A DNA stretch of 32,000 bases from an uncultured bacterium (GTDB taxonomy: Bacteria > Margulisbacteria > WOR-1 > CAVSGV01), in contig OY969425.1 of the NCBI GenBank assembly GCA_963699255.1, forward strand, positions 1,140,001 through 1,172,000, written 5' to 3'. The notes beneath the pieces were generated by a model that was not told the origin of the DNA, did no database searches, and was given only the letters and a program-made list of their open reading frames with translations. The stretch's first letter is position 1. Every line of letters begins with the position of its first letter. Below, in pieces: positions 10,872-24,952 of this stretch. Position numbers and translations under genes: made by a program.

Positions 10872-11384
10872 ATGGGAGATCTACAGGAAGCTCTGGAAAC
10901 AGCTCTCGAAATGGAAAAGAACGGCTACGATCTTTATATTAAAGCCGCGCGAAAGACATCTAACAAACTTGGAAAAACCACGCTGGAAGCTATCGCGGCC
11001 AAGGAGCTGGATCATATCAGGGCTATCGAGGAATTCGCGGAAAACAACTTCGGCAAGGCGATCGAAAGCGTGAACCCTAAAAGCAAGATCGATTATGTCC
11101 GCTCCGTAATGGAAAAGCTGGAAAGATCCCTGGATGAGAATATCACAAAGGATTCCGACCTCGAGAAGGCATATAAGGTCGCCCTGGAGCTTGAAAAACA
11201 TTCATACGATTTTTACAAAAATCTTAATAAAGGATCCAAGAATCCTCAGGCAAAGAAATTCTTTGAATTCCTCATGGGCGAGGAGAACACCCACTACGAG
11301 CTTCTATCCGAAACCCTGGAATACCTGAACAGCCCCAAAGACTGGTTCAGGGAACAGGAAAAATGGATCGTTGACGGCGGGTAG
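10872..11384 (+). CDS. Ferritin-like / rubrerythrin-family diiron domain protein, 170 aa
   Basis: ORF track. Two E...ExxH half-sites: EMEKNGYDLY...KELDH and ELEKHSYDFY...EENTH. The start lies 3 nt after the preceding stop. Confidence 0.7.
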   Translation: MGDLQEALETALEMEKNGYDLYIKAARKTSNKLGKTTLEAIAAKELDHIRAIEEFAENNFGKAIESVNPKSKIDYVRSVMEKLERSLDENITKDSDLEKAYKVALELEKHSYDFYKNLNKGSKNPQAKKFFEFLMGEENTHYELLSETLEYLNSPKDWFREQEKWIVDGG

Positions 11385-11580
11385 CGCTGTCTGATCCCGA
11401 ATTTTCAAAAACCAACAAAAGACCAAGGCCGTTCCTTTACTGTGCTGATTATTCATCAATACTTCGTGCAATCCTTAAACACAGCCATTAAAAAACTTCT
11501 GTTTTCAAACTTTTTATACAGCTTTCCAACTTTACACTTTATGGCGACATTGATTGTCATGATAAACAAAAGATTTATGG

Positions 11581-11586
11581 TATAAT
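11581..11586 (+). promoter_or_regulatory. Extended -10 (TGgTATAAT) 6 nt upstream of GTG 11593
   Basis: The sequence is TGGTATAAT-ccatat-GTG, with no SD. The ATG at 11591 is followed at once by TGA. Confidence 0.45.
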
Positions 11587-11592
11587 CCATAT

Positions 11593-12090
11593 GTGATAAA
11601 AAAGATAATAGAAAAGGTGCACAACTGGCAGACAAGGTTCAGCTTCGGTTCAACTTCCGCGGTAATAACCAATCTGGCGCTGATGGCCGGTTTGCATTCT
11701 CAGGCCAACGCGAAGATAAGCATAATAGGTGGAATAATGGTGATCGCGCTTGCCGATAACGTCTCCGATTCCTTTGGCATACACATATATCAGGAGTCCG
11801 AAAAAATCGAAACACTGGAGGTTTGGACATCCACCATTTTCAATTTCATTTCAAGGATCCTCGTTTCTCTGAGCTTTGTGGCTCTGATGTTGATGCTGCC
11901 GCTTAATGTCGCCATAATCTCTTCGATGATCTGGGGGCTTCTTCTTCTGGCCGTTGTAAGTTATATGATCGCAAAAAATGAATCGGTAAACCCGTACCTG
12001 TCCATACTGACGCATGTTCTGATAGCGGTCGCCGTGATATTTGTCAGCAATCTGGTAGGCGATCTCCTGATACATCGGTTTGGCAGATAA
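11593..12090 (+). CDS. VIT1/CCC1-like membrane protein (putative Fe/Mn transporter domain), 165 aa
   Basis: ORF track. FGSTSAVITNLALMAGL and IALADNVSDSFGIH followed by hydrophobic helices resemble the VIT family. The call is from memory only. Confidence 0.55.
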   Translation: MIKKIIEKVHNWQTRFSFGSTSAVITNLALMAGLHSQANAKISIIGGIMVIALADNVSDSFGIHIYQESEKIETLEVWTSTIFNFISRILVSLSFVALMLMLPLNVAIISSMIWGLLLLAVVSYMIAKNESVNPYLSILTHVLIAVAVIFVSNLVGDLLIHRFGR

Positions 12091-12110
12091 ACACCGGAAC
12101 TATATCCAAC

Positions 12111-12632
12111 ATGAGTAATATGGGAAATAATAAAACCTTCAAGAGCTTCCCTTTATGGGTGATAGCTATAGCTGATGCTGTGGCGTTCGGCATATACTTC
12201 ATTGGCGCTTATATCATGTTCAGGTTTAACGCGATCTGTGGATGGCTTTACCTGCTTTATTGCCTTATTGTTGAAGTCAGGATAATGAGGATCTCATGCA
12301 TCCACTGTTATTATTATGGCAAGCTGTGCGGCCTTGGTAGAGGGAAACTTGCATCTCTATTTTTTAGGAAAGGCGACCCCAAAAAGTTCCTGGAAAAGAA
12401 GGTCACATGGAAAGACCTTATCCCCGATTTATTGGTTTCACTGGTGCCATTTTTTCTTGGCATTTACATCTTATTCAATGATTTCAGCTGGTCAATGCTG
12501 ATCTTGATCTTAATACTGCTGTTCCTGACCACTCTTGGGAACGGATTTGTCAGAAGTAATTTTGCCTGCAAATACTGCAAACAGAGAGAGCTCGGCTGCC
12601 CTGCAGAAAAACTGTTTGCGAAAGCTAAGTAA
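12111..12632 (+). CDS. Cys-rich integral membrane protein, unknown function, 173 aa
   Basis: ORF track. About four TM segments. Cys clusters: [12 protein letters not shown] and [12 protein letters not shown]. Confidence 0.5.
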
Positions 12633-12646
12633 GGATCATTCTTATC

Positions 12647-13753
12647 ATGTTCATTCTCTCCATTGAAACATCCTGTGACGAAACCTCTGCTGCCGTCGTT
12701 GAGAACGGCCGCAGGGTGCTTTCGAGCGTCGTGGCTTCCCAGGTGGAGTTCCACAAGAAATACGGCGGAATAGTCCCGGAAGTCGCTTCAAGAATGCATA
12801 TCGAGGTCATTGCCGCTGTCGTCAAACAGGCGCTGGATGACGCGAAGATCCCCAATAAAAAGATCGATGCCGTTGCCGCGACCTATGGCCCCGGACTTGT
12901 TGGTTCATTGATAGTCGGTCTGAATTATGCCAAAGCTATTGCATACGCTTTACATAAACCATTTATTCCGGTTAACCATATAGAGGGGCATATATACGCT
13001 AATTTTATTGCAGAGACGCGAGATGCGAGACGCGAGATGCGAAAAAATAAATCACATCTCACATCTCACACATCACATCTCACTTTTCCCTTTGTCTGCC
13101 TTGTCGTATCCGGCGGGCACACGCAGTTGATACTGGTCAAAGATCACGGGAAATATGAAACCCTCGGAAGAACGCGCGATGATGCCGCAGGGGAAGCTTT
13201 TGACAAAGTTGCCAGATTCCTCGGGATCGGCTACCCGGGAGGCCCTATCATCGATAAAATGTCAAAAAAAGGCGATCCGGAAGCTGTAGATTTCCCGCGC
13301 GCGATGATCGATGATGGATACGATTTCAGCTTTAGCGGCCTTAAGACCGCTGTTGTAAACTACGTAAGGCGTAGTACGGAATCGAAAAGCGCAACGTGCA
13401 TCGATACACATGCATCGATACGCACTTCCAAACCGCTTGACGCCGCTCGAATCCCCGACTTAGTCGCTTCATTCCAGCAGGCGGTCGTGGACATCCTGGT
13501 CGAAAAAACTATCAGGGCGGCAAAAGACAAAAAGGTCAAGTGGATCGCTCTCGCCGGCGGAGTTTCCGCGAACTCAAGGCTTCGTGAAGACCTTAAAAGC
13601 AGGGCGAAAGAAGAAGGATTTGAAATATCCATACCGCCGCTCCAGCTATGCACCGATAACGCCGCGATGATCGGAAGCGCAGGTTATTACTTGATAAAAA
13701 AGGGCAAAAAGAGTAATCTGGATACAGAAGCGGTCTCGACCCTGAGGATCTAA
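12647..13753 (+). CDS. tsaD: tRNA N6-adenosine threonylcarbamoyltransferase TsaD (368 aa, with extra inserted segments)
   Basis: ORF track. Motifs: [85 protein letters not shown]. Confidence 0.93.
13013..13083. repeat. Heptad-repeat palindromic element inserted in-frame in tsaD
   Basis: (GAGACGC GAGATGC)x2 at 13013-13040. Spacer GAAAAAATAAAT at 13041-13052. CATCTCA CATCTCA CACATCA CATCTCA at 13055-82. The arms are complementary apart from C/A positions, which become G-U on the antisense strand. It is translated as [24 protein letters not shown]. Confidence 0.85.
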
Positions 13754-14514
13754 TGAAGAAGAAAATATATATACTCCTTATCGTCGTCTTTTGCATTTCA
13801 AGCTTTGCTTTTCTTTTCGGCTGCGGCAAATACGCGGCTCAATATTCCGCTCCTGTCATCCTTGAAAGATTTCCGGCAGAGGGGACCGGGGGCATAGGGA
13901 CAACGGAAACACTGTGGATCAAGTTCAGCAAATCAATGGATACGACCGGCCTCAATTCGATCAATGCTATCGCAACCAACATTAAATTCGCGACCGATAA
14001 TACGGCTATGGTGACATTCGAACCCGGCGTTACGCCCGAAGTCGTTTGGTCCGAAGACAACTCAAAGCTCACTCTTGTCAATTTATTCTTCACCGCGGAT
14101 TCCGGCAACAGGATACACATTCAATCATCCAGAGAAGCCTTCCAGGACGTGAACGGCCTTTATCTGACAGAGAACGCGGACCTTTGGAGCTTCACTGTTT
14201 CGGGACTGAACATAGTGAGCAGGTACCCCACGATAGATGCTACGATCTCGAACATTCCAACGACGGCCGTTGCAACATTCGATAACTCCGTAGTAACAGC
14301 CTCATTCTTGATAAGTACGGGAGAGGGACACACAGCTGGAATGCCGATCCCATCTCCGCCGTCCTTCACCTGGTCAAACTCGGATAAGACTTTGAGCATT
14401 GAAAATGTTTCCTGGGAAGCGGCTTCGGGAACGGTCAATATCACGTATGAAGCAATCGATATTTACGGGAATGTCGTGACGAACGGCCAGCTATTCAATT
14501 ATAATCTTCCATAG
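13753..14514 (+). CDS. Lipoprotein with Ig-like (SbsA-type) domains, 253 aa
   Basis: ORF track. Signal peptide plus lipobox LFGC. The pattern P-x-dG...I-x-I-x-FSKSMD occurs twice. The start overlaps the tsaD stop (TAATG). Confidence 0.6.
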   Translation: MKKKIYILLIVVFCISSFAFLFGCGKYAAQYSAPVILERFPAEGTGGIGTTETLWIKFSKSMDTTGLNSINAIATNIKFATDNTAMVTFEPGVTPEVVWSEDNSKLTLVNLFFTADSGNRIHIQSSREAFQDVNGLYLTENADLWSFTVSGLNIVSRYPTIDATISNIPTTAVATFDNSVVTASFLISTGEGHTAGMPIPSPPSFTWSNSDKTLSIENVSWEAASGTVNITYEAIDIYGNVVTNGQLFNYNLP

Positions 14515-14538
14515 CCTGTCCAGAACGGAGCCGAAGGA

Positions 14539-15522
14539 CTATTTCATATCATCAAGGAGACCGGCCATTGCAGCTATAACGTCCTTTGTTTCCGGTTTCA
14601 TGAATTCTTCGTAGGTGAATATTTTCCTGCCGCTGTTGAACGCGGAGATCACGGTCGCCGAGTAATACCTGTCCAGCGTGTTCTTTATCGTGGTCGCGAG
14701 CTGTTTCTTAACGATAGCTTTCACCGAATCCATCTTATAAGTGTTGAAACACAGCGCAAACGTGACGTACTCGCCTGAAGAAGTATCAAGCTTTGAAAGG
14801 TGATCCTCAGCGCGGCCTTCCATCGCGCCGCGGCTTCCCCCGATGTCGGCATAATTGATGTCAAAAGCCTTAAGAGCCATGCCCAGATCATCCATGCTCT
14901 TGTCGACCATGGATATGGTGTCCGCGGGAGTATAGATCACGTATCTTTTCCATTCGCTGCCGTTGAGAAGCGCATACGCCCAGCCCAGCCTGTTGTAAGC
15001 CTTTGCGTAATAAAGGGGATAATACTGCGCCGGGGATATGTTCATGCTTTTTTCCGTTGTAAGGTTGGATATCGATGTCAGGACCTCGTTTAGCCAGGAA
15101 TCCGCTTCCTCATACATTTCAAGCTGTTTATACAGCTTCACGACCGAACCCTCGATCGACCTGTGCGTCAGGATCCCCTTCCTGAAAGCGGAAGCGATGG
15201 CATAAGGCAGGACTTCAGCGGCGAGGTCCGGGGTTGTGTCTTTCGCATTAAGTATCTCGACCGCCTTGGCGTTAACAGCGGACAGCGTCGAAAGGGCGTT
15301 ATCATACGCGCCGAGCCTCTCCCTTACGAGCGCCCTCTTGTACAGGTCCGCAAGGGACTTTGTCGGCCTGCTTGCCGTGGAGGAGATCACGTAATCCGTG
15401 ACGTTCTCGCCGAGCGACTTAGAATCCGACTGCGGCATATCCTCGAACGTGGTCGCCATTTCCTGGCAGAAGCAAGCCGTGGACATGAGTAATAGCGATA
15501 TTATCAATAAAATTTTGAGCAT
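14539..15522 (-). CDS. Secreted hypothetical protein, ~327 aa
   Basis: I trimmed the ORF-track frame to MLKILLIISLLLMSTACFCQE (signal peptide). I recognise no family. Confidence 0.55.
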   Translation of the reverse strand: MLKILLIISLLLMSTACFCQEMATTFEDMPQSDSKSLGENVTDYVISSTASRPTKSLADLYKRALVRERLGAYDNALSTLSAVNAKAVEILNAKDTTPDLAAEVLPYAIASAFRKGILTHRSIEGSVVKLYKQLEMYEEADSWLNEVLTSISNLTTEKSMNISPAQYYPLYYAKAYNRLGWAYALLNGSEWKRYVIYTPADTISMVDKSMDDLGMALKAFDINYADIGGSRGAMEGRAEDHLSKLDTSSGEYVTFALCFNTYKMDSVKAIVKKQLATTIKNTLDRYYSATVISAFNSGRKIFTYEEFMKPETKDVIAAMAGLLDDMK

Positions 15523-15635
15523 AATAAACTTTGTAATGTTATCACATAAAGATGGTGAAGGCAATTAAGGCCGATTTAAAGTGCCTATATTAAGATGGGT
15601 ATTCGATCGTTGAACATAATAAGATTTTTCGGGGT

Positions 15636-16247
15636 CTAATTTTGTGAGTATGGGGGGATAAATTTTTCAAGGCGGCATTTTTCAGAATAGAGAATATTTG
15701 CAAAATTTTTCATGTTCCACCCCAGACCTGTCATGCCGCTTCGAGCATCGATCTTGTCCATCTCATTCTTGTCAAAAGTTAGAGCTTTTGACTCTCGATA
15801 AGTATCCAGGCTGGACTTTCCATCTTTGCCACAGGAATAAAAATTAGTGACCCAATGCGCATAAGCATCAATGAATTGCTCCACGATCCGATCCATTACC
15901 CCCACCAATTCCGGGCAAAGTTCTTTGAACATTATGAAGTCTCTTTGTTCATTTGTTTTTTTATTTGAGATGTCAGCCGCGCTCCCCATTAGATTATTCC
16001 AAAGATCGAGCGCTCGAGGTATTTTCCCTGTGGTCAATGATTTGAGACCGTCTGAGATTATTTTGTCGGCCGCGTTCAAGCGTCTTTTAGCATACTTGCC
16101 GATCAACAACGCTTGGTCGTCAAAATCAAGGTCAAGGAATCGCTCTCTGATACCGCGACGGACAGGTGAATTCGGTGAATGCTGCAGTATTGCGCGGCTT
16201 AGCCACCTATTCATTCTGGGATCCGGTTTATAATCGCCTATTCTCAT
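15636..16247 (-). CDS. Hypothetical protein, paralog A of a tandem pair (203 aa)
   Basis: ORF track. It shares HWVTNFYSCGKDGKSS...MDKID...G with its neighbour. GGAG SD upstream. No family recognised. Confidence 0.6.
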   Translation of the reverse strand: MRIGDYKPDPRMNRWLSRAILQHSPNSPVRRGIRERFLDLDFDDQALLIGKYAKRRLNAADKIISDGLKSLTTGKIPRALDLWNNLMGSAADISNKKTNEQRDFIMFKELCPELVGVMDRIVEQFIDAYAHWVTNFYSCGKDGKSSLDTYRESKALTFDKNEMDKIDARSGMTGLGWNMKNFANILYSEKCRLEKFIPPYSQN

Positions 16248-16289
16248 AAGATCTCCTTATTTTGACCGGCAGTCCTTATCTTGACCCGT

Positions 16290-16311
16290 ATTTATATCGT
16301 CATATTCTTTC
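16290..16311 (-). promoter_or_regulatory. Conserved 22-nt upstream motif, copy A (ATTTATATCGTCATATTCTTTC on the + strand)
   Basis: 21 of 22 positions match 16980-17001. It begins 42 nt upstream of start 16247. The minus strand reads GAAAGAATATGACGATATAAAT, which contains a -10-like TATAAA. Confidence 0.5.
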
Positions 16312-16344
16312 GGGAATTTCGCTTGACCGTGGAATATTTCAGGC

Positions 16345-16935
16345 TTAGATCTTATAACTTTCGGGGAAATTCTTTAAGAGGAGATCGTCCGCATATTTTT
16401 TTATGTGTTGTCCCAGAAGATTCATGTCGCTTTTGTCATTGATCATTTGCATATCATCACTGCTTAAATCGCGAGCTGCTGAATTTTTACAGGCCGAAAA
16501 ACTGCGCTCTCCATCTCCGCCACAGGAATAAAAATTGTCCACCCAATACTTGAATGATCCCGTGAAAAGCCTCGTGATCTCACTGGATACATCCGCCAAT
16601 TGCGGGTAAAGCTTGTTGATCGTTTTGATCATCAGGTAATCGCTCTTTTTATCTGTTTTAATATTTTCACCAGGCTTTTCATAAGAATTCGCAAGTACCC
16701 TGAACCAGAGATAAACTGCAGTTGGTTTTGTTTTTCCTGAAATATGCTGTGATATTAATTTATTGACTTGATTCAACTGCAATTTAGCAACCGTACCGAT
16801 CTCCTTCGCCTGTTCGGCGGGGGAAAGCCGCCGAAATTTCAATCTGTCAGCAGGGGTAATAGCTGATGGGTCAGACATGGCGCGACGTGCAAGAGTATGC
16901 GCGTAAGGCAGCTTGTTTCCAATTATTGTTGTCAT
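16345..16935 (-). CDS. Hypothetical protein, paralog B of a tandem pair (196 aa)
   Basis: ORF track. Motif YWVDNFYSCGGDGERS...MQMIN...G. GGGGGA SD upstream. Confidence 0.6.
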   Translation of the reverse strand: MTTIIGNKLPYAHTLARRAMSDPSAITPADRLKFRRLSPAEQAKEIGTVAKLQLNQVNKLISQHISGKTKPTAVYLWFRVLANSYEKPGENIKTDKKSDYLMIKTINKLYPQLADVSSEITRLFTGSFKYWVDNFYSCGGDGERSFSACKNSAARDLSSDDMQMINDKSDMNLLGQHIKKYADDLLLKNFPESYKI

Positions 16936-16979
16936 AAAATCCCCCTGTATATTTCTGGTAACCTTAATCCTTTTCCGGC

Positions 16980-17001
16980 ATTTATATCGTCATGTTCTTT
17001 C
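16980..17001 (-). promoter_or_regulatory. Conserved 22-nt upstream motif, copy B (ATTTATATCGTCATGTTCTTTC)
   Basis: It begins 44 nt upstream of start 16935 and differs at 1 position from copy A. Confidence 0.5.
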
Positions 17002-17029
17002 AAAAATTTCAATATATTTATATTTTTCT

Positions 17030-17057
17030 CATCTCACATCTCTCATCTCGCATCTCT
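17030..17057. repeat. Solo (CATCTCN)x4 heptad array; matches the pyrimidine arm of the tsaD element
   Basis: CATCTCA CATCTCT CATCTCG CATCTCT, preceded by an A/T-rich tract (17005-17029). No complementary GAGAYGC arm lies nearby. Confidence 0.7.
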
Positions 17058-17061
17058 ATCC

Positions 17062-17090
17062 TTCACTTGCCTTATTTATTATTGTATAAT
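17062..17090 (+). promoter_or_regulatory. gatCAB promoter: TTCACT-N17-TGTATAAT, 7 nt from the gatC ATG
   Basis: -35 TTCACT at 17062-67, a 17-nt spacer ending in TG, and -10 TATAAT at 17085-90. Then caaaaac-ATG (17098), with no SD. Confidence 0.5.
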
Positions 17091-17097
17091 CAAAAAC

Positions 17098-17385
17098 ATG
17101 AAAGTGACCGTTAAGGATGTTGAACACGTCGCAAAACTGGCGAGATTAGGCCTCACGCAAGAAGAAAAAAAGCGCTTCACGCAGCAGCTGTCAGGCATAC
17201 TGGAATACGCGGAAACCATAAACAAGCTCGACACAAAGAATGTCATTCCTACCTCTCACGCGATCCCGATGAAGAACGTTTTCAGGGAAGACAAAGTATC
17301 GGAATTCGAAGATCAAAAATCGATAATCGGCAACGCCCCCAGAGAAGAGAACGGCATGTTCTCCGTCCCCAGGATAATGGAGTAA
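17098..17385 (+). CDS. gatC: Glu/Asp-tRNA amidotransferase subunit C
   Basis: Trimmed from ORF 16897-17385. Reads [27 protein letters not shown]...; 95 aa. Confidence 0.9.
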
Positions 17386-17387
17386 AA

Positions 17388-18845
17388 ATGGAACTCTTCG
17401 AGCTTACCGCCCACGAGCTGCACTCAAAGCTGGACAAGAGAGAGGCCTCCGCCGAGGAGATCGTCAGGTCGGTCCTTCGAAGGATAAGCAGGGTTGAGAA
17501 CAGCGTGTCCGCTTTTATGACCGTCAATATTGACGAGGCCATATCAAGGGCGAAGGAGATCGATGAGCAGATAGCTTCGGGAAAACAGATAACTCCTTTA
17601 ACCGGGATACCCGTTGCGATAAAGGATAACCTCTGCACAAGGGGGATGCTGACCACCGCTTCATCAAAGATACTTCAGAATTACGTTCCGCCTTACAACG
17701 CGACCGTGGTCGAAAAAATACTGCAGGCGGGCGCGATCCCGATAGGCAAGACGAACCTTGATGAATTCGCCATGGGTTCTTCCACCGAAAATTCAGCTTA
17801 CAAGGTGACAAAAAATCCCTGGGACGTGAGCACAGTCCCCGGCGGGTCATCGGGCGGGTCGGCAGCCAGCATTGCCGCGGATGAAGCAATACTCGCTTTC
17901 GGATCGGATACCGGCGGATCGATAAGGCAGCCCGCTTCATTCTGCGGGGTCGTGGGACTTAAGCCGACCTACGGCCGGGTCTCAAGATACGGACTCATCG
18001 CTTTTGCCTCCTCTCTGGACCAGATAGGACCGCTGACAAAGGACGTGACCGACGCCGCGATCTTCATGAACATTATGGCGGGCCACGATGTAAAAGATTC
18101 AACTTCAGTCGATATTCCTGTGCCGGATTACAGAAAGGCCCTCATTGATGATGTAAAAAAGCTTAAGATCGGCATCATAAAAGAGCTTGTAGGCCAGGGA
18201 ATTGACGACGGGGTAAAAAAAGCCGTTCTGGAAGCCGCGGATGTCCTGAAAAAGCTGGGAGCCAGCGTTGAGCAGGTCTCAATGCCGACCCTTGCATACG
18301 GCGTCCCGACCTATTACATTCTAGCGACGGCCGAGGCAAGCTCGAACCTTGAAAGATATGACGGGGTAAAATACGGCTTAAGGTCGAACGAAGCGGACGA
18401 CCTTCTTTCAATGTATTACAACACCAGGCGCGAAGGCTTCGGCCCCGAGGTAAAGAGAAGGATAATGCTGGGCACCTATGCCCTCTCCGCCGGATATTAC
18501 GACGCTTATTATCTGAAGGCCCAGAAAGTAAGGACCTTGATAAAGAACGATTTCGATAAGGCGTTCTCTAAATTCGACATCCTCCTCTCCCCCACCGCGC
18601 CGAGCGTCGCGTTCAAGATAGGCGAGAAGGTCAACGATCCGCTTTCAATGTACCTGTCCGATATCGCCACGATACCGATCAATCTCGCCGGCATTCCGGC
18701 GATATCGATCCCGTGCGGTTTTGTGAATGACCTGCCCGTTGGACTCCAGATAATGGGAAAAGCATTCAGCGAAGAGTTGCTGTTCAGGATCGCTTATACT
18801 TTTGAACAGAATACGCAGTGGCACAAGAAGAGGCCTAAGCTATGA
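17388..18845 (+). CDS. gatA: Glu/Asp-tRNA amidotransferase subunit A
   Basis: ORF track. Amidase signature [16 protein letters not shown] and [15 protein letters not shown]. Confidence 0.95.
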
Positions 18846-20287
18846 AATACGAAACAGTAATCGGGCTGGAAGTGCACGCACAGCTCCTGACAGAGTCGAA
18901 GATATTCTGCGGCTGCTCCGCAAAATTCGGCGCGGCTCCCAACACGAACATCTGCCCTGTCTGCACCGGACAGCCGGGAGTTCTTCCTGTTTTGAACAAA
19001 AAGGTCGTAGATTTTGCAATAAAGACAGGGCTTGCGCTCAAGGCCAAGATAGCAAAGCATTCGATATTCGCCAGAAAGAACTATTTCTATCCGGACATTC
19101 CGAAGGGTTACCAGGTATCGCAGTATGAACTTCCCATCGCGACGGCGGGGCAGCTTGACATAAACGTCGACGGAAAAGCGAAGGAGATCGGGATAACGCG
19201 TGTGCATCTGGAGGAGGACGCGGGAAAGCTGGTGCATCAGGGCGCGGCGGGACTGAAAGGTTCGACCGGAAGCCTCGTCGATTTCAACAGGACCGGAGTT
19301 CCTCTGATGGAGATAGTGAGCGAACCCGATATCCGCTCGCCGGAAGAAGCAAAAGTATACATGCAGGAGCTGAGGAACATCCTGATGTCATTGGGTGTCT
19401 GCGACGGGAACATGGAGGAAGGAAGCCTGCGGTGCGACGCGAACGTATCCCTGAGGCCGGTAGGGCAAAAAGAGTTCGGCGTTAAGACCGAAGTAAAGAA
19501 CATGAACTCGTTCAAGGCGGTCCAGAAAGCTCTGGCGGCGGAAGTGGTAAGGCAGACGCAGATACTTGAAGAAGGCGGGAAGCTCCTGCAGGAATCCAGA
19601 TTATATGATGACTCGACCGACACGACGGTCCCGATGAGGAGCAAGGAAGAAGCCCATGACTACCGATATTTCCCGGAGCCGGACCTTGTGCCGGTCGAAA
19701 TAGATGCCAAATGGATAGAAGATATCGGCAAAACGATTGGAGAACTTCCTCAGGCGAAAAAAGCCAGATACATGAAAGATCTCGGCCTGCCCGATCTCGA
19801 CGCAACGATACTTGTCGATGACAAGTCCCTGGCTGATTTCTTTGAAGAAAGCATCAAGCTTCTTAACGAGCCGAAAGAAATAAGCAAATGGCTGGTCGGC
19901 GATGTATTAGCTTACATGAATGAAAATAAAACGAACATCTCCCAGCTTGATCTTACGCCCTCAAATCTGATCGAGATGATCAAACTCATCGCCAAGGGCA
20001 CCATAAGCAGAAAAACGGCAAAGGAAGTGTTGATCAAGGTGCTTGATACGGGAAAGAGCGTGAATGATATCGTTGCCGAATCCGGCGCGACCCAGATATC
20101 GGATGAAGGCGAGATCATTAAGATAATAGCTGATATCATCAGGGATAATCCAAAATCTGTCGCTGATTATAAAGGCGGCAAGGAACAGGCGCTTTTCCAT
20201 CTTATGGGGCAGGTCATGAAGGCCACAAAAGGCAGGGCCAATCCGGAAACAACAAAAGCTATTCTGATCAAGGAGCTTAAGAAGTAA
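18842..20287 (+). CDS. gatB: Glu/Asp-tRNA amidotransferase subunit B
   Basis: ORF track. Reads [15 protein letters not shown]...[19 protein letters not shown] overlap with gatA. C-terminal YqeY/GatB domain. Confidence 0.95.
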
Positions 20288-20307
20288 GCTGAAAGGATCG
20301 TGAAGGT

Positions 20308-20832
20308 ATGGATCAATGGCTTATAGACGCGATCACCAAGCTGGATCCTGATGAGACCGCGAAGATAAAGTTGTTATATCCCCCTCTCCAAGTCAAAGCT
20401 TACAAACTAACTATTGATGTCCACAAGCACGGATTAAAGGGCGGTGTTTTCTGTTCTTATCGCAGTTTCCAGGAGCAGGCGGCGACGTACGCGAAAGGCA
20501 GGGATGCGAAGGGGAACATTGTGAACCCAAAGCTGGTGGTCTCGAACACGAAGCCGGGGTACAGCTGGCATCAATGGGGGCTTGCCATTGACTGGGTGTT
20601 CAAGGACGCGAAGGGTGCGTGGACGTGGGATAATTCGCAGCCATGGGCGGAGTTAGGAGCGATAGGAAGGCAATATATGTCGTGGGGCGGAGATTGGCCG
20701 AAGTTCCCCGACAGGCCGCACTTTGAGAAAACATATGATCTGGATATTGAGAAGATCAACCAGGTCTATATTAAGAACGGTAAAAGTCTCGCGGCGGTGT
20801 GGAAGTATATGGATAATGTCATAAAAGCATAA
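20308..20832 (+). CDS. M15-family (VanY / phage-endolysin-type) zinc peptidoglycan peptidase, 174 aa
   Basis: ORF track. SYRSFQEQ, SWHQWGLAID (H, D ligands) and DRPHFE (H ligand). No signal peptide. Confidence 0.85.
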   Translation: MDQWLIDAITKLDPDETAKIKLLYPPLQVKAYKLTIDVHKHGLKGGVFCSYRSFQEQAATYAKGRDAKGNIVNPKLVVSNTKPGYSWHQWGLAIDWVFKDAKGAWTWDNSQPWAELGAIGRQYMSWGGDWPKFPDRPHFEKTYDLDIEKINQVYIKNGKSLAAVWKYMDNVIKA

Positions 20833-20897
20833 GAAGGCGTGTAATAAAATAGATTTTTTAAGGCCTCCTGACAAATAACAATAAGTGAGGTGAAATA

Positions 20898-21506
20898 ATG
20901 CACGTATCTATATTAATATCAATAGTAGCCTTATTTCTATCAGGGTATACATTTTACTTTTCGTTTATAAGACCATGTAAAATTGATGTTTATGTAGGCG
21001 ACAAAATAGGCATAGTTAAATCGTCCGGTGGAGACTATTCGAAGGTTCACCTTAACTGCAACTTTGTTAACAATACCCCAAGTAATGGCGTGATCGATAA
21101 AATATTATTGGAAATTGAAGCTCCTGATAAAAAGAAATATCAATTTGACTGGGATGAATATTATAAATATGTGGGAAATCAAGGCGTCGAACCCGAATCT
21201 TTATCGTTTCCTATTGCCATTAATTCAAAGAATTCTGTTTATAAAGGCATTCAATTCAAAATGCGCGATCACTCAGAAATCATAGGTTCCAGAACTGTTT
21301 CGGAAACGAGCATATCATGGACAACCGGAAAATACACACTTACTATCAAGGGCTGGTCAAATAAATCCAGCATAAATGAAAAGCCAAATATTATTAAGCT
21401 TTTTCAAATAGATATTAATGCAATTAAATTAGATGAAATTACTCATATAAATGCAGGCGAGCACGCAATGGTTGTATTTATTCCTCTGTCAGGTTGGGAT
21501 GAATAA
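20898..21506 (+). CDS. Single-pass membrane protein with beta-rich extracytoplasmic domain, unknown function, 202 aa
   Basis: ORF track. GAGGTG SD upstream. N-terminal TM ILISIVALFLSGYTFYFSFI. AT-rich coding sequence. Confidence 0.6.
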   Translation: MHVSILISIVALFLSGYTFYFSFIRPCKIDVYVGDKIGIVKSSGGDYSKVHLNCNFVNNTPSNGVIDKILLEIEAPDKKKYQFDWDEYYKYVGNQGVEPESLSFPIAINSKNSVYKGIQFKMRDHSEIIGSRTVSETSISWTTGKYTLTIKGWSNKSSINEKPNIIKLFQIDINAIKLDEITHINAGEHAMVVFIPLSGWDE

Positions 21507-22431
21507 TAGATTACAAAAAGACAAACAGATAAATTCCATTGATGCCATCATCAATAAACTAGAAAAGATTATTGGGTCCTTTAGCGAACAGGAGATTAAT
21601 AAGCTTCACAGCTTCTCTTCAACCGCAGATGAAAGAGCAAAGGGGTTTTATGCTGGTTCAAAAGAATATTGTGATTATATTACGAACAACATTATAGGCA
21701 TTTTAAAGGGGATAATTAAACCAAACAAAAGAGAGACGCTATTAATCGGATTGTTTGGTCGATTTTATGGGAGGCTTAGAGATGCTGTTCAGCTAAATAA
21801 TTGGATATATTTCGAGTCTACTGCATCAGCAACTAGGACAATGTTTGAGATTCTTGTTGATATGATATTAATAAGTAAGGACACGTCCTCTGTTAGCATT
21901 GATAAATACTTCGAATATATAGATCTGAAGAAATATGATTACATGAAAAAGTATTATGAGTATATTGATGCGAAAAAGTGTAGCAAAAATGAATTTTATT
22001 ATAGCGCAAAAGAATATGTTGATAATATAAACAAATCAAAGGATGTTGCTAGCACTATTAAACAAGTATGGCGAGCGGAAAAACTCCCAAAAACTTGGAC
22101 AGGGAATGACCTTGCGACTAACGCAGAAAATGCCGAACTAAGTGAAATATATAGGTATCTATATGCAAGATTGTGTTGGCAAACCCATTCGGGCTTAACG
22201 CATGTTTTAGGGTTTAAACAAGACTACTTTATCAATACATATGGCGAAGCCCACCTTAACATTCAAGCATTTACTATGAGAATGTTGCGAATTTTTATTG
22301 GCGAATTTAAACTCGACAAAGCAATGCCTAATCTTATGAAATCAATAGAAACCGTTGAACAAGTCCCAGCAATTTCGTTTATCATACAAGATCTTAATAA
22401 AATGAATCAAGCTACAGTTAAACCAAAATAA
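21499..22431 (+). CDS. Alpha-helical protein with Rx5H motif; possible HEPN/DUF5677-like, ~310 aa
   Basis: I trimmed the ORF-track frame to MNNRLQKDK. Its ATG overlaps the upstream stop by 8 nt (ATGAATAA). It contains LFGRFYGRLRDAVQL...TMFEILVDMIL and YARLCWQTHSGL (R at 22168-70, H at 22186-88). The family assignment is from memory and unverified. Confidence 0.5.
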   Translation: MNNRLQKDKQINSIDAIINKLEKIIGSFSEQEINKLHSFSSTADERAKGFYAGSKEYCDYITNNIIGILKGIIKPNKRETLLIGLFGRFYGRLRDAVQLNNWIYFESTASATRTMFEILVDMILISKDTSSVSIDKYFEYIDLKKYDYMKKYYEYIDAKKCSKNEFYYSAKEYVDNINKSKDVASTIKQVWRAEKLPKTWTGNDLATNAENAELSEIYRYLYARLCWQTHSGLTHVLGFKQDYFINTYGEAHLNIQAFTMRMLRIFIGEFKLDKAMPNLMKSIETVEQVPAISFIIQDLNKMNQATVKPK

Positions 22432-22685
22432 TTCAATCTAACATTTATCTAATACTTCGTGTCATTTTTAACTGATTTCAACCGACTTACTCCGACTTTA
22501 CATAACCCAAAGGTTGGCTGGCACACCCTTTCCGCATTTGGCCCCAGAACATTGATCTCCCCTTCCCTTCGCCATCTTGGATTACCAGCAAAACTTTAAA
22601 AAATGTGAAATTTTCAACATAATTTGCCGAAATACCACAGTGAAGAGGAATTTGAGCCCGAATAATAAGTATAGGAGGAATTAAT

Positions 22686-23165
22686 GTGGTCAGCATAAAG
22701 CCTGTCTATGTAAGATTACGAGATCATAGTACATTTCCTAAGGCCGCCTATGGCAAAATAAGCCGGCAGCTGTTAAGCAGTGTTTCCTGCCTGCCCAAGG
22801 ACATCCTGGAAAAGATACACTTTCCCCCTACCGTCGTTCGATTGCCAATTACACTGCTGGAAAAAGCCTTAAAAGACATCAGGCCCGAAACCCCCGTAAA
22901 TTTCGGATATTATTCCGATAAGCCGTCAACAACCTTTAAGGCGGCTGTCGAACTAATGAATGCTCACTTAAAATTGTCGAACGCGGTGATTGCAGTAAAT
23001 ATTGATGGTAAGACAGCCGCACTCAATGAGAGATGGGTAGGCGCTCCAATGCAGCTGAATTTCTACAGACTATTCGATAATAACGGGAAGTTAGAGAATA
23101 CGAACGGTGAAGACACTATACACATCGACCTGACCAGCATGCGCATCGCAAAGTTAGGTGCGTGA
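22686..23165 (+). CDS. Hypothetical protein, paralog 1 of a tandem pair, 159 aa, GTG start
   Basis: ORF track. AGGAGG lies 7 nt upstream of GTG. Shared motif (V/I)SCLPxxILEKxxFP...SxAVIAV. Confidence 0.6.
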   Translation: MVSIKPVYVRLRDHSTFPKAAYGKISRQLLSSVSCLPKDILEKIHFPPTVVRLPITLLEKALKDIRPETPVNFGYYSDKPSTTFKAAVELMNAHLKLSNAVIAVNIDGKTAALNERWVGAPMQLNFYRLFDNNGKLENTNGEDTIHIDLTSMRIAKLGA

Positions 23166-23183
23166 AATTAATTCAAAAACTCG

Positions 23184-23197
23184 CCGATATATATCGG
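23184..23197. promoter_or_regulatory. Perfect 14-bp palindrome CCGATATATATCGG between the two paralogs
   Basis: It is exactly self-complementary and lies 5 nt upstream of the AAGGAGG SD of 23213. Confidence 0.4.
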
Positions 23198-23212
23198 TAA
23201 GGAGGGATCAAT

Positions 23213-23701
23213 GTGAAGATCGGAGCGGATCATGTATATTTTAAACTGCTCAATCAAACCGGTTTTCCTAAACAACCGTACTGCAATCTGACCTCCAGGC
23301 TGCTGGGACATATTTCCTGCCTGCCCGGGAACATCCTGGAAAAGATGCGTTTTCCCGACAGTAATTCCCGATTTCCATCAACGCCGCTGGAAAATGCCCT
23401 AAAAGCAATCACGCTTCATACGCCCATAACTTTCCCCGAAGATCCCAATAAAGCACAACATAGAACGTTCCTTTCGGCCATTAACCTGTTCAAAAAGCAC
23501 ATAGATCTGTCGAGCGCAGTTATCGCAGTTACGATAGGACCAAAGACGAACGAACTTGGCGAGACATGGAACGACGCTCCCCTCCAGCTGAAATTCTCCA
23601 GGACACATACTAATATTTACGGCGGCTTAAATGACAGTAGACGCAAGGAAACTATCTGCGTGGACCTGAACGGCCTGCGCATAGAAAATAAAAACAGGTA
23701 A
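23213..23701 (+). CDS. Hypothetical protein, paralog 2 of a tandem pair, 162 aa, GTG start
   Basis: ORF track. AAGGAGG SD upstream. Roughly 30% identical to paralog 1 by eye. Confidence 0.6.
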   Translation: MKIGADHVYFKLLNQTGFPKQPYCNLTSRLLGHISCLPGNILEKMRFPDSNSRFPSTPLENALKAITLHTPITFPEDPNKAQHRTFLSAINLFKKHIDLSSAVIAVTIGPKTNELGETWNDAPLQLKFSRTHTNIYGGLNDSRRKETICVDLNGLRIENKNR

Positions 23702-23841
23702 AGACCCTTCATTCCCCTATTTTGTCTCCCGTATCTTTGAAAACACTACAAATCAACTTTACAATGAACGCCGTATATAAAAAGAACGGCAACGGTCTTG
23801 CTGCTGTATGGAAATATATGGATAGCGTCATGAACGGCTGA
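23701..23841 (+). pseudogene. 3'-terminal remnant of a second, diverged M15 peptidase gene
   Basis: The frame ending at TGA 23839-41 reads ...NAVYKKNGNGLAAVWKYMDSVMNG*. The intact gene ends QVYIKNGKSLAAVWKYMDNVIKA*. By hand count, 15 of 22 aa and 51 of 69 nt are identical. No catalytic part is present. Confidence 0.6.
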
Positions 23842-23848
23842 GGGCTCC

Positions 23849-24952
23849 TCAGTCCGGAAAACCTAAAACATAGGGATACAATTGCCTTGCTAATTTCGAT
23901 TGAGCCAGCCTCAACGCGAAATTCTCCGACCATATTTCCTGCAATGATCTTTGTCCGTCTATACTGCCAAGGTTTACCGATGGAATTGACGCGAATGACG
24001 GGATCTTTTTCCTGAACTCATCACTAAAATGCACCATCTGGCTTATTCCTACGCTCCCGTCCGCGGTTATTCTCATTCCGGCGCCGCGGTAATATTCGGA
24101 AAATATAGTAATGGGCATGGCTGACGGCATTTTCGTCTTTTTCATGGACAATGGGCAGCTTATAAAAGGCAGGAAGCGGGGGGTTGTTATTGTTATGTCA
24201 TTCAGTTTCTCCTCCAGATCGGACAGGTCATCAGGGCCCACAAATCCTACTTTGGAATAAGCATTCGTTCCAAGAAGTTTGAACGGAGTGACATGATAAT
24301 GCCTCAAACCGCATCCCGCCAGATACGCCGCGAATTCCGGAATATATGTCAGATTGTTCTTGTATAAAGTGGAAAGGACGACCAGCTGGTTCCCTTTCTT
24401 AAGCAAAGAAGGCAGAAGCCAGTTCATGACTTTGCGGTATTGTATCGGATTCCTGTACTTTGCGTTGATGTCCTCAGGCCCGTCCAGGCTTACAATGATC
24501 TTAGACCTGGGATTGTCTAACATCGACAATACACGTTCTTCGTTCAGCCGCATGCCGTTCGTTATCAGATTCGCCGAGGTGAATTCCTTTTGTGTCGCGT
24601 AGTCCCACAATTCGTAGAAGTGAGGATGGAGCATGGCTTCCCCTCCCCTTATCGCCAGTTCAAAAGCCCGCAGCTCGTCAGCTTCATCGATGACCCCCTT
24701 TACCGCATCGTCCCGCATTATGATCCGCCCTTCCATGCCGCTCTGCGAACAATACGAACATTTTGAATCGCAGCCCCGGAATATCTCAAGCACTATGCGG
24801 ACCGGGAATTTCAGTTTTGCGGGATCAAATTTATTGTGCCGGCCTGCCAGGTCCTTTACGGACACCAGCCTGTCCAGGGGATCGAAGGTCAATTGGATAT
24901 TGCCGTCTCTCCTTGCACGAAGGTAATTATTATCTTTTATCCTAATGTCCAA
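23849..24952 (-). CDS. Radical SAM enzyme, 367 aa, unknown substrate
   Basis: ORF track. CX3CX2C cluster motif GCDSKCSYC and GGEAMLHP. No Cys-rich SPASM-type C-terminus. Confidence 0.85.
   Translation of the reverse strand: MDIRIKDNNYLRARRDGNIQLTFDPLDRLVSVKDLAGRHNKFDPAKLKFPVRIVLEIFRGCDSKCSYCSQSGMEGRIIMRDDAVKGVIDEADELRAFELAIRGGEAMLHPHFYELWDYATQKEFTSANLITNGMRLNEERVLSMLDNPRSKIIVSLDGPEDINAKYRNPIQYRKVMNWLLPSLLKKGNQLVVLSTLYKNNLTYIPEFAAYLAGCGLRHYHVTPFKLLGTNAYSKVGFVGPDDLSDLEEKLNDITITTPRFLPFISCPLSMKKTKMPSAMPITIFSEYYRGAGMRITADGSVGISQMVHFSDEFRKKIPSFASIPSVNLGSIDGQRSLQEIWSENFALRLAQSKLARQLYPYVLGFPD

Follow-up and report, generated by a model that had tools for sequence, protein, structure and literature searches.

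A truncated second 3′ end of an M15 peptidase gene and gene turnover downstream of gatB in an uncultured Margulisbacteria bacterium

Described systems and the layout of the M15 locus

Mobile DNA that integrates into a protein gene at its 3′ end, and that brings along a surrogate 3′ end of that gene, is described for icd/e14/icdC of Escherichia coli K-12 (PMC13626634). Here, we analyse a locus with a partly similar layout in a 32-kb stretch of DNA from an uncultured bacterium of the WOR-1 lineage of Margulisbacteria (contig OY969425.1, positions 1,140,001 to 1,172,000), which we refer to at its full length as “the window”: an intact gene for a 174-amino-acid M15 peptidase (Peptidase_M15_4/VanY, CwlK-like; 20308..20832), which starts 20 nt after gatB, is followed by about 2.9 kb of cargo and by a second, diverged 3′ end of an M15 allele (23764..23841), which we refer to as “the relic”. 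From left to right, gatCAB is followed by M15, then by a low-GC cassette and a pair of paralogs, and lastly by the relic, a convergent radical-SAM gene and a GT47 glycosyltransferase gene. What we can state most robustly about this arrangement is that the locus combines two diverged versions of one neighbourhood into a chimera, the relic being a remnant of the M15 gene of the second version. Coordinates are those of the window, on the forward strand, unless a relative is named or the minus strand is indicated; relatives are coded L002, L108 and L101, and M15 homologs P0001 etc.

In the icd and icdC sequences that we have extracted from E. coli MG1655, 153 of 165 nt are identical, the differences being 10 synonymous and two non-synonymous ones; there are identical runs of 29, 26 and 21 nt, the left edge is identical over 11 nt, the boundary is sharp, and intE and xisE are located inside the 15-kb e14. 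Phage 21 is grouped with e14 as an element that integrates into the 3′ end of icd. The closest analogue of the M15 locus is icd/e14/icdC, which it resembles in that an intact gene is located at the left and a 5′-truncated copy of its 3′ end is located on the same strand at the far side, so that duplicated 3′ ends bracket an insert, with the left copy completing the open reading frame (ORF) and the differences between the copies being mainly synonymous. It is unlike the E. coli case in three respects: no recombinase gene occurs in the bracket, while e14 carries intE and xisE; the M15 pair is 72% identical, with identical runs of 10 nt at most and no identical attL/attR core, while icd and icdC have long identical runs and an 11-nt edge (a core could have been erased by decay after an old event); and the unit that varies is an internal cassette of 1.6 kb rather than the whole bracket, while e14 is a presence/absence unit. 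Throughout the 32 kb, no integrase, transposase or phage structural domain was found by Pfam searches of ORFs of at least 150 amino acids, which were complemented for the cargo proteins by PADLOC, PHROGs and NCBIfam.

Flexible genomic islets, i.e. hotspots that are swapped by homologous recombination between conserved flanks, are known from the population genomics of many bacteria. The M15 locus is like them in that conserved flanks (the tail of the M15 gene and the intergenic region 22504-22685) surround unrelated cassettes of foreign composition, and in that the flanking gene is a mosaic. Such hotspots normally leave no truncated duplicate of the flanking gene; the M15 locus differs from them in having one, and a further, non-homologous event is required to explain the relic. 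Homology-facilitated illegitimate recombination, which is known from natural transformation in Acinetobacter and Streptococcus pneumoniae, offers an analogy, as homology that anchors one side, combined with an illegitimate joint on the other, would bring in foreign DNA and cut a resident gene short. An integron-like cassette array was also considered, and it was rejected, with no integrase and no repeated palindromic element at the cassette boundaries.

A fourth comparison is with phage lysis cassettes that carry M15 endolysins and moron genes. The peptidase of the window matches PHROG endolysin families, and its nearest non-orthologous homologs (44-60% identity) are located in lysis-like cassettes, behind a YvrJ/holin-like gene and a gene of 93 amino acids; its homologs on viral contigs are at most 40% identical. 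The window is unlike a lysis cassette, as it has no holin, structural, integrase or repressor genes, and the M15 gene follows gatB at 20 nt in three genomes. The label “endolysin” of the original prediction, which had been made from the letters of the DNA alone, thus fits the family and its nearest relatives, but not the plain chromosomal context of this gene, which may be a domesticated lysin. A prophage or prophage remnant was rejected, since the 32 kb lack phage structural, repressor and integrase domains as well as those of lysis partners, and the one cargo protein with a named domain, DUF5677, is absent from phage and viral collections; the locus is ordinary chromosome.

The relic and its descent from an M15 gene

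The last 22 codons and the stop codon of the intact gene (20764-20832) recur at 23773-23841 on the same, forward strand, with 51 of 69 nt and 15 of 22 amino acids identical and with the stop codons aligned, in agreement with the counts that had been made by hand. The repeat extends 9 nt further in the 5′ direction, to 20755 and 23764 (ATCAAC and ATGAAC, respectively), and 56 of the 78 nt through the stop codon are identical; the two arms of the direct repeat are therefore 20755..20832 in the intact gene (INQVYIKNGKSLAAVWKYMDNVIKA before the stop) and 23764..23841 in the relic (MNAVYKKNGNGLAAVWKYMDSVMNG before the stop). An independent repeat finder returned a 71-nt repeat of 75% identity, and the longest identical runs, of 10 and 8 nt, are located in the middle of the repeat. 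The intact gene matches PF13539 with 39.3 bits and PF02557 with 36.7 bits (cut-off 25), including the catalytic region; the relic has no catalytic motifs and is thus not a functional member of the Peptidase M15_4/VanY family of CwlK-like LAS metallopeptidases. By eye, no Shine-Dalgarno-like sequence precedes it.

In searches of the window with the intact M15 gene masked, tblastn of the 174-amino-acid peptidase, which had been proposed as a check, found the relic with E=1.7e-6, the runner-up having E=0.59, and blastn found it with E=1.7e-8. A hidden Markov model (HMM) that was built only from the distant homologs P0002-P0006 (44-59% identity), leaving out the neighbouring copy and the close relatives, had the relic as its single match in all six reading frames (E=1.2e-4), at profile positions 168-190 of 191 and thus at the exact C-terminus of the family. 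The alternative that the similarity is due to chance, or that 23701-23841 is part of an unrelated conserved gene, has next to no probability: chance matches begin at an E-value of about 0.6, an independent profile places the relic at the C-terminus with the stop codons aligned, and the only ORF at the site is 39 amino acids long with a TTG start. For practical purposes these results refute this alternative, which the original prediction had named as its possible refutation, and we conclude that the relic is real and derived from M15.

The differences between the two copies are those of genes that have diverged while being translated. Seven codons differ synonymously (V1, G6, L9, A10, A11, V12 and K14), all of them at the third base only; the third-base pattern had been noted before, with a count of six. 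Over the 22 codons, the proportions of synonymous and non-synonymous differences after Nei and Gojobori (pS and pN) are 0.76 and 0.14, of the 18 differing nucleotides, 1, 4 and 13 are located at the first, second and third codon positions, respectively (chi-square p=0.0015), and the synonymous excess over the neutral expectation has p ~0.002. These values and the skew across codon positions imply that both tails diverged while coding: the relic diverged under coding constraint within a working gene, and it is not a decayed recent duplicate, just as the original prediction had it. Furthermore, K3, N7 and the final residue, G22, are common to the relic and the outgroup clade P0002/P0003, where the three intact tails of the close relatives carry I, K and A. 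The first 131 codons of the M15 gene compared between the window and L002 have pS 0.70 and pN 0.11, matching the distance between relic and tail; the latter is the distance expected between alleles of sister lineages.

Seven nucleotides after the relic stands the stop codon of the convergent radical-SAM gene (23849..24952, minus strand), and each of the two stops belongs to one arm of a perfect 6-bp hairpin, CTGAGG-GCT-CCTCAG (23838..23852): the TGA of the relic at 23839-23841 and the stop of the radical-SAM gene at 23849-23851, which reads TCA on the forward strand. This shared hairpin is weak evidence, hinting that the relic and the radical-SAM gene may be long-standing convergent neighbours. 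It would also suit two full M15 paralogs, one after gatB and one before the radical-SAM gene, with the 5′ 85% of the second deleted or replaced; a functional paralog would likewise have diverged under coding constraint, and the relic branches outside the three intact tails, sharing K3, N7 and G22 with the outgroup homologs. We nevertheless regard this explanation as quite unlikely: no genome with two M15 genes occurs among the 332 homologs or contexts that we have examined, L002 has neither an M15 start nor M15 similarity after its paralog pair, and the distance between relic and tail equals that between alleles of different lineages, not the deeper one between paralogs.

The sequence just upstream of the relic may extend it. 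The spacer 23712..23763, a possible degenerate and indel-ridden continuation, starts with TTCCCC, as does the M15 gene at 20704, and its global alignment with 20704-20754 scores better than alignments with shuffled sequences (p=0.008) or with random genomic 52-mers (p=0.023), in a test whose 52-nt boundaries were picked post hoc; the blocks in common are CCG.A, CTTTGA and AAACA. An anchored upstream extension of the relic at the nucleotide level was not significant. If the spacer is homologous, it has accumulated about seven indels in 52 nt, compared with none in the 3′ 78 nt, and the repeats, both of which begin with TTCCCC, measure 129 and 130 nt. A longer relic reaching back to 23712 is a weakly supported possibility, and we treat it as a lead only.

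The contrast in indels between the 3′ 78 nt and the upstream 52 nt, if these are homologous, is what might be expected if the relic had been retained for a new role, as a micro-ORF of 25 amino acids from the ATG at 23764 or as a terminator or 3′ untranslated region (UTR) of the radical-SAM gene, which could be added to any origin of the relic. The ATG stands in place of ATC exactly at the boundary, a promoter-like site occurs at 23737-23765, a weak terminator-like hairpin occurs on the minus strand at 23804-23789, and the stop-codon hairpin 23838-23852 would fit as well. Such retention is nonetheless very improbable, as promoter-like sites (15, with 10.5 expected) and terminator-like sites (3, with 3.7 expected) occur in the region about as often as by chance, the ATG shares bases with the -10 element and lacks a Shine-Dalgarno-like sequence upstream (by eye), and the folding of the relic RNA is no better than that of shuffled sequences (z=-0.35).

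Gene turnover after gatB and a possible seam

The comparison with relatives locates the variable part of the locus. Synteny with the more distant relatives stops at the stop codon of gatB (18842..20287), the last gene of the synteny that is common to L002, L108 and L101: L108 and L101 are wholly different from there on and have no M15. Two close relatives were found. The first, L002, from a JGI metagenome (3300049914, contig Ga0494770_0000046, which ends at 149,326), has an M15 gene with 83% identity and is collinear with window 12046-20859 at 82.6% nucleotide identity; it carries an unrelated cassette of 0.63 kb, with a 164-amino-acid protein, where the window has 20860-22503, and it is collinear again over 22504-23708, i.e. 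over the intergenic region and both paralogs, which are pairwise orthologous. The second, the genome carrying P0133 (on a 3.8-kb contig of JGI 3300075153), is known from its annotated gene order, in which gatB and M15 are followed by a gene of 383 amino acids and, 20 nt on, by a convergent gene, with no paralog pair. Three related genomes thus have three different cargos directly after M15. From the loss of synteny at the gatB stop and from the comparison with these two genomes, we conclude that a synteny breakpoint and gene-turnover hotspot is located downstream of gatB, and that the window and L002 differ by the low-GC cassette 20860-22503 as a unit, not by the 2.9-kb bracket.

The 3′ end of the M15 gene takes part in this turnover. 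The last 130 nt of the gene and 27 nt past its stop (20703..20859; 10393-10549 in L002) are 96% identical to L002, compared with about 77% for the rest of the gene; the 27 nt are nearly identical as well, and 20703-20852 likewise reaches 96%, compared with 82% for the locus as a whole. Third codon positions are identical at 73 of 131 codons in 20308-20700 and at 39 of 44 in 20701-20832 (Fisher p=5e-5), and pS is 0.21 for the last 42 codons, compared with 0.70 upstream, where synonymous sites are saturated. The orthologs P0001 and P0133 have 83% and 86% identity to the window peptidase, and the P0133 allele is put together in blocks from the other two (runs test p=0.016). The contrast in third positions and pS, together with this mosaic, shows that the M15 tail is recombinant: it moves horizontally, exchanged independently of the 5′ part of the gene, right beside the swapped cassette. 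The RNA folding of the conserved tail is unremarkable (z=-0.43).

The original prediction had proposed that cassettes are exchanged or inserted by recombination at the peptidase 3′ end, within a bracket formed by the two copies, or that a second endolysin gene was mostly replaced by incoming DNA. The first half of the exchange proposal stands in spirit, as three cargos and a mosaic tail border the M15 3′ end, and the different cargos that it had suggested looking for in relatives exist. The second half is not supported: the copies do not bracket the exchanged unit, since only 20860-22503 varies, the paralog pair 22686-23701 is conserved in L002, and no M15 similarity follows the pair there. 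No relative was found in which the site is empty or a second peptidase gene is intact, both of which it had also suggested looking for.

We somewhat favour the reading that the relic is a seam, left by a homology-anchored join with an illegitimate joint, after which cassettes have kept being swapped by homologous recombination; the succession of these events and their mechanism are what we infer from the present arrangement. In one version of the neighbourhood, common to L002, gatCAB and M15 would have been followed by a variable cassette and by the paralog pair; in the other, a second M15 gene, of which the last 26 codons are left (or perhaps about 43, in degenerate form), would have converged on radical-SAM/GT47. 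The two would have been joined by homology on one side of the locus and illegitimately on the other, truncating the second M15 gene at about codon 149, in homology-facilitated illegitimate recombination or an equivalent replacement event. Later, the left part of the bracket would have been turned over by ordinary homologous recombination, with the M15 3′ end (20703-20859) and the intergenic region 22504-22685 as homology arms; recombination through these arms would account for the low GC content of the cassette, for the different cargos of the three genomes and for the mosaic alleles of M15.

In favour of a seam, the homology to L002, which covers 12046-20859 and 22504-23708, ceases 56 nt before the relic; the radical-SAM and GT47 genes have no ortholog above 52% identity and are located elsewhere in other genomes, while distant synteny is lost at the gatB stop; and the stops of the relic and the radical-SAM gene occupy the two arms of one hairpin. 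That no site-specific machinery was involved is in line with the lack of a recombinase gene in the 32 kb and with identical runs of at most 10 nt between the copies.

Several points weigh against such a seam. No genome with an empty site (gatB, M15, radical-SAM) and none with an intact second M15 was found, and the ancestral states are reconstructions; the contig of L002 extends for only 72 nt past the paralog pair; and the illegitimate joint is a postulated one. Moreover, three boundaries coincide, namely the start of the homogenised tail at 20703, the possible start of the relic at 23712 (TTCCCC) and the end of the L002 homology at 23708, which fits a site-specific, e14-like geometry better than a randomly placed illegitimate joint. 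Lastly, the spacer, if derived from M15, is far more decayed than the 3′ 78 nt, an unevenness that the model leaves unexplained.

In the corresponding e14-like history, an element with a surrogate M15 3′ end would have integrated near M15 codon 132 (TTCCCC, 20704), its tail completing the M15 gene and displacing the resident tail to 23712-23841, with the integrase lost or acting in trans and the interior remodelled afterwards. Besides the geometry of same-strand 3′ duplicates that end at stop codons, with a sharp left boundary and mostly synonymous differences, it would account for the M15 tail and 27 nt that move apart from the 5′ part (96% compared with 77% identity to L002), for candidate repeats of nearly equal length that start with the same TTCCCC, and for the end of the L002 homology 4 nt before the start of the candidate repeat. 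However, neither the bracket nor the rest of the 32 kb holds an integrase, excisionase or recombinase; instead of an identical core, there are runs of 10 and 8 nt in mid-repeat and of 6 nt at the putative edge; the divergence of the bracketed paralog pair from L002 matches that of the host genes (58% amino acid identity); the unit that varies between genomes is 20860-22503; the right flank in L002 has no relic, its last 72 nt being without similarity to any M15 tail (p=0.49); and the 5′ extension of the relic is weakly supported and post hoc. On balance, we consider this history possible but rather improbable.

A more far-reaching proposal, which we consider unlikely, is that the M15 tail (about 130 nt, with 27 nt past the stop) is a dedicated attachment or anchor site for small elements without an integrase, which would be mobilised in trans or else captured through recombination. 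With each element would come a surrogate M15 tail and a different cargo, possibly related to defence, as in the DUF5677 cassette, and the relic would be the displaced native tail.

Cargo genes, neighbouring genes and implications

Four ORFs are located between the two M15 copies, as originally reported: 20898-21506, 21451/21499-22431, 22686-23165 and 23213-23701. The first two belong to the variable low-GC cassette (20860..22503), with 33.5% GC compared with 47% in the window: a protein of 202 amino acids with an N-terminal transmembrane (TM) helix, and a gene that overlaps it and carries the only domain of the cargo that has a name, DUF5677 (Pfam). Neither the four cargo proteins nor the cassette protein of L002 match PADLOC or NCBIfam, and the four proteins of the window have no significant PHROG match and no defence or phage assignment. 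A preprint lists DUF5677 among the domains that are enriched next to recombinase-linked defence loci and were picked for testing (PMC12632615), which bears on the cassette indirectly. In the 164-amino-acid cassette protein of L002 (10582-11076), a D...QVK pattern (DILCSNKNGDKFIHIQVKT) resembles by eye a PD-(D/E)XK nuclease, and no family model matches it.

The conserved intergenic region 22504..22685, which serves as the homology arm to the right of the cassette, has a promoter-like site as well as the motif GTGAAATTTTCAACA, and the region of the motif may be an operator. Its counterparts in L002 are 11181-11362 and 12040-12075, and upstream of paralog B of L002 there are, by eye, two copies that resemble the motif, AGTGAAATTTTTCAAC and AGTGAAATTTTTCGAT. 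The paralogs that follow belong to an orphan family: paralog A (22686..23165, 159 amino acids) is 42% identical to paralog B and has an ortholog in L002, and paralog B (23213..23701, 162 amino acids) is 58% identical to its L002 ortholog, the homology to L002 ending at 23708, 7 nt past its stop. The L002 genes are located at 11363-11881 and 12061-12597.

No Pfam, NCBIfam, PADLOC or PHROG model matches the paralog family, and a protein search with paralog B returned only itself. The AlphaFold (AF2) model of paralog B is confident, with a pLDDT of 82 and a pTM of 0.79, and Foldseek found no match for it in the PDB. In an exhaustive profile search, only five remote homologs were found among 1.8 billion representatives, in an unrelated chromosomal context, as a tandem of three genes between ymdB and valS in another lineage (L181, 6264-7733); the members of the family are thus proteins of about 160 amino acids that occur as tandem paralogs.

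To the right of the relic, the radical-SAM gene is followed by the GT47 gene. The best non-self match of the radical-SAM protein has 52% identity, in a lineage where the GT47/radical-SAM pair adjoins mreBCD; with its best match this distant and located by mreBCD elsewhere, the pair was of no help as a synteny anchor, and the radical-SAM gene used as bait in genome and metagenome contigs returned no relatives. Its ORF extends over 367 amino acids from a TTG, while the public annotation (P0121; 100% identity, 80% coverage) has 295, so that the start codon is uncertain.

To the left of the M15 gene are located gatA (17388-18845) and gatB, whose product is 77% identical to that of one metagenome-assembled genome (MAG) and about 55% identical to sequences from Nitrospinota and Bacillota. 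The reads of ERR10755942 contain the strain of the window at 99.98% identity. In L108 (6001-7459), the gatB gene of MFD01476.bin.2.44 is split into two overlapping ORFs, by a frameshift or an assembly error. The other ORFs of the window with at least 150 amino acids encode, according to Pfam, transporters, purC, tsaD, msrAB, POR and similar proteins; no tRNA gene and no Rfam family was found in our searches. Between the tsaD/Big_5 genes and gatC, two paralogous genes without a Pfam match (15636-16935, minus strand) cross-match by blast with three genes of L002 (4811-6501; 143, 193 and 211 amino acids), and the block is absent in L108; this looks like a second copy-number-variable spot in the window.

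A family that ends with AVWKYMDEMNFYR and by eye is NadD-like has, close to its C-terminus, the same heptapeptide AVWKYMD as the M15 tail; the match is coincidental. A search of metagenomes with a degenerate DNA pattern for this heptapeptide was abandoned, as its 93 matches were mostly NadD C-termini of the AVWKYMDEMNFYR type and chance matches, with no M15 tail among them.

If the M15 tail were indeed an anchor site for small elements, the locus would be a cassette-capture hotspot in an uncultured lineage without a linked recombinase, and a tail that is a true attachment site would serve as a marker for mobile cargo in uncultured bacteria, including candidate defence genes such as those of the DUF5677 cassette. 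Irrespective of this, the locus combines a chimera of two versions with a peptidase gene whose 3′ end is exchanged apart from the 5′ end, and with a single site for three unrelated cargos. Its structure is of a familiar class, with a statistically solid scar and no sign of a new mechanism, and its main value is that of a clean worked example: the relic is a dated, sequence-level record of how a hotspot was constructed beside the essential operon gatCAB, in a lineage that is known only from metagenomes.

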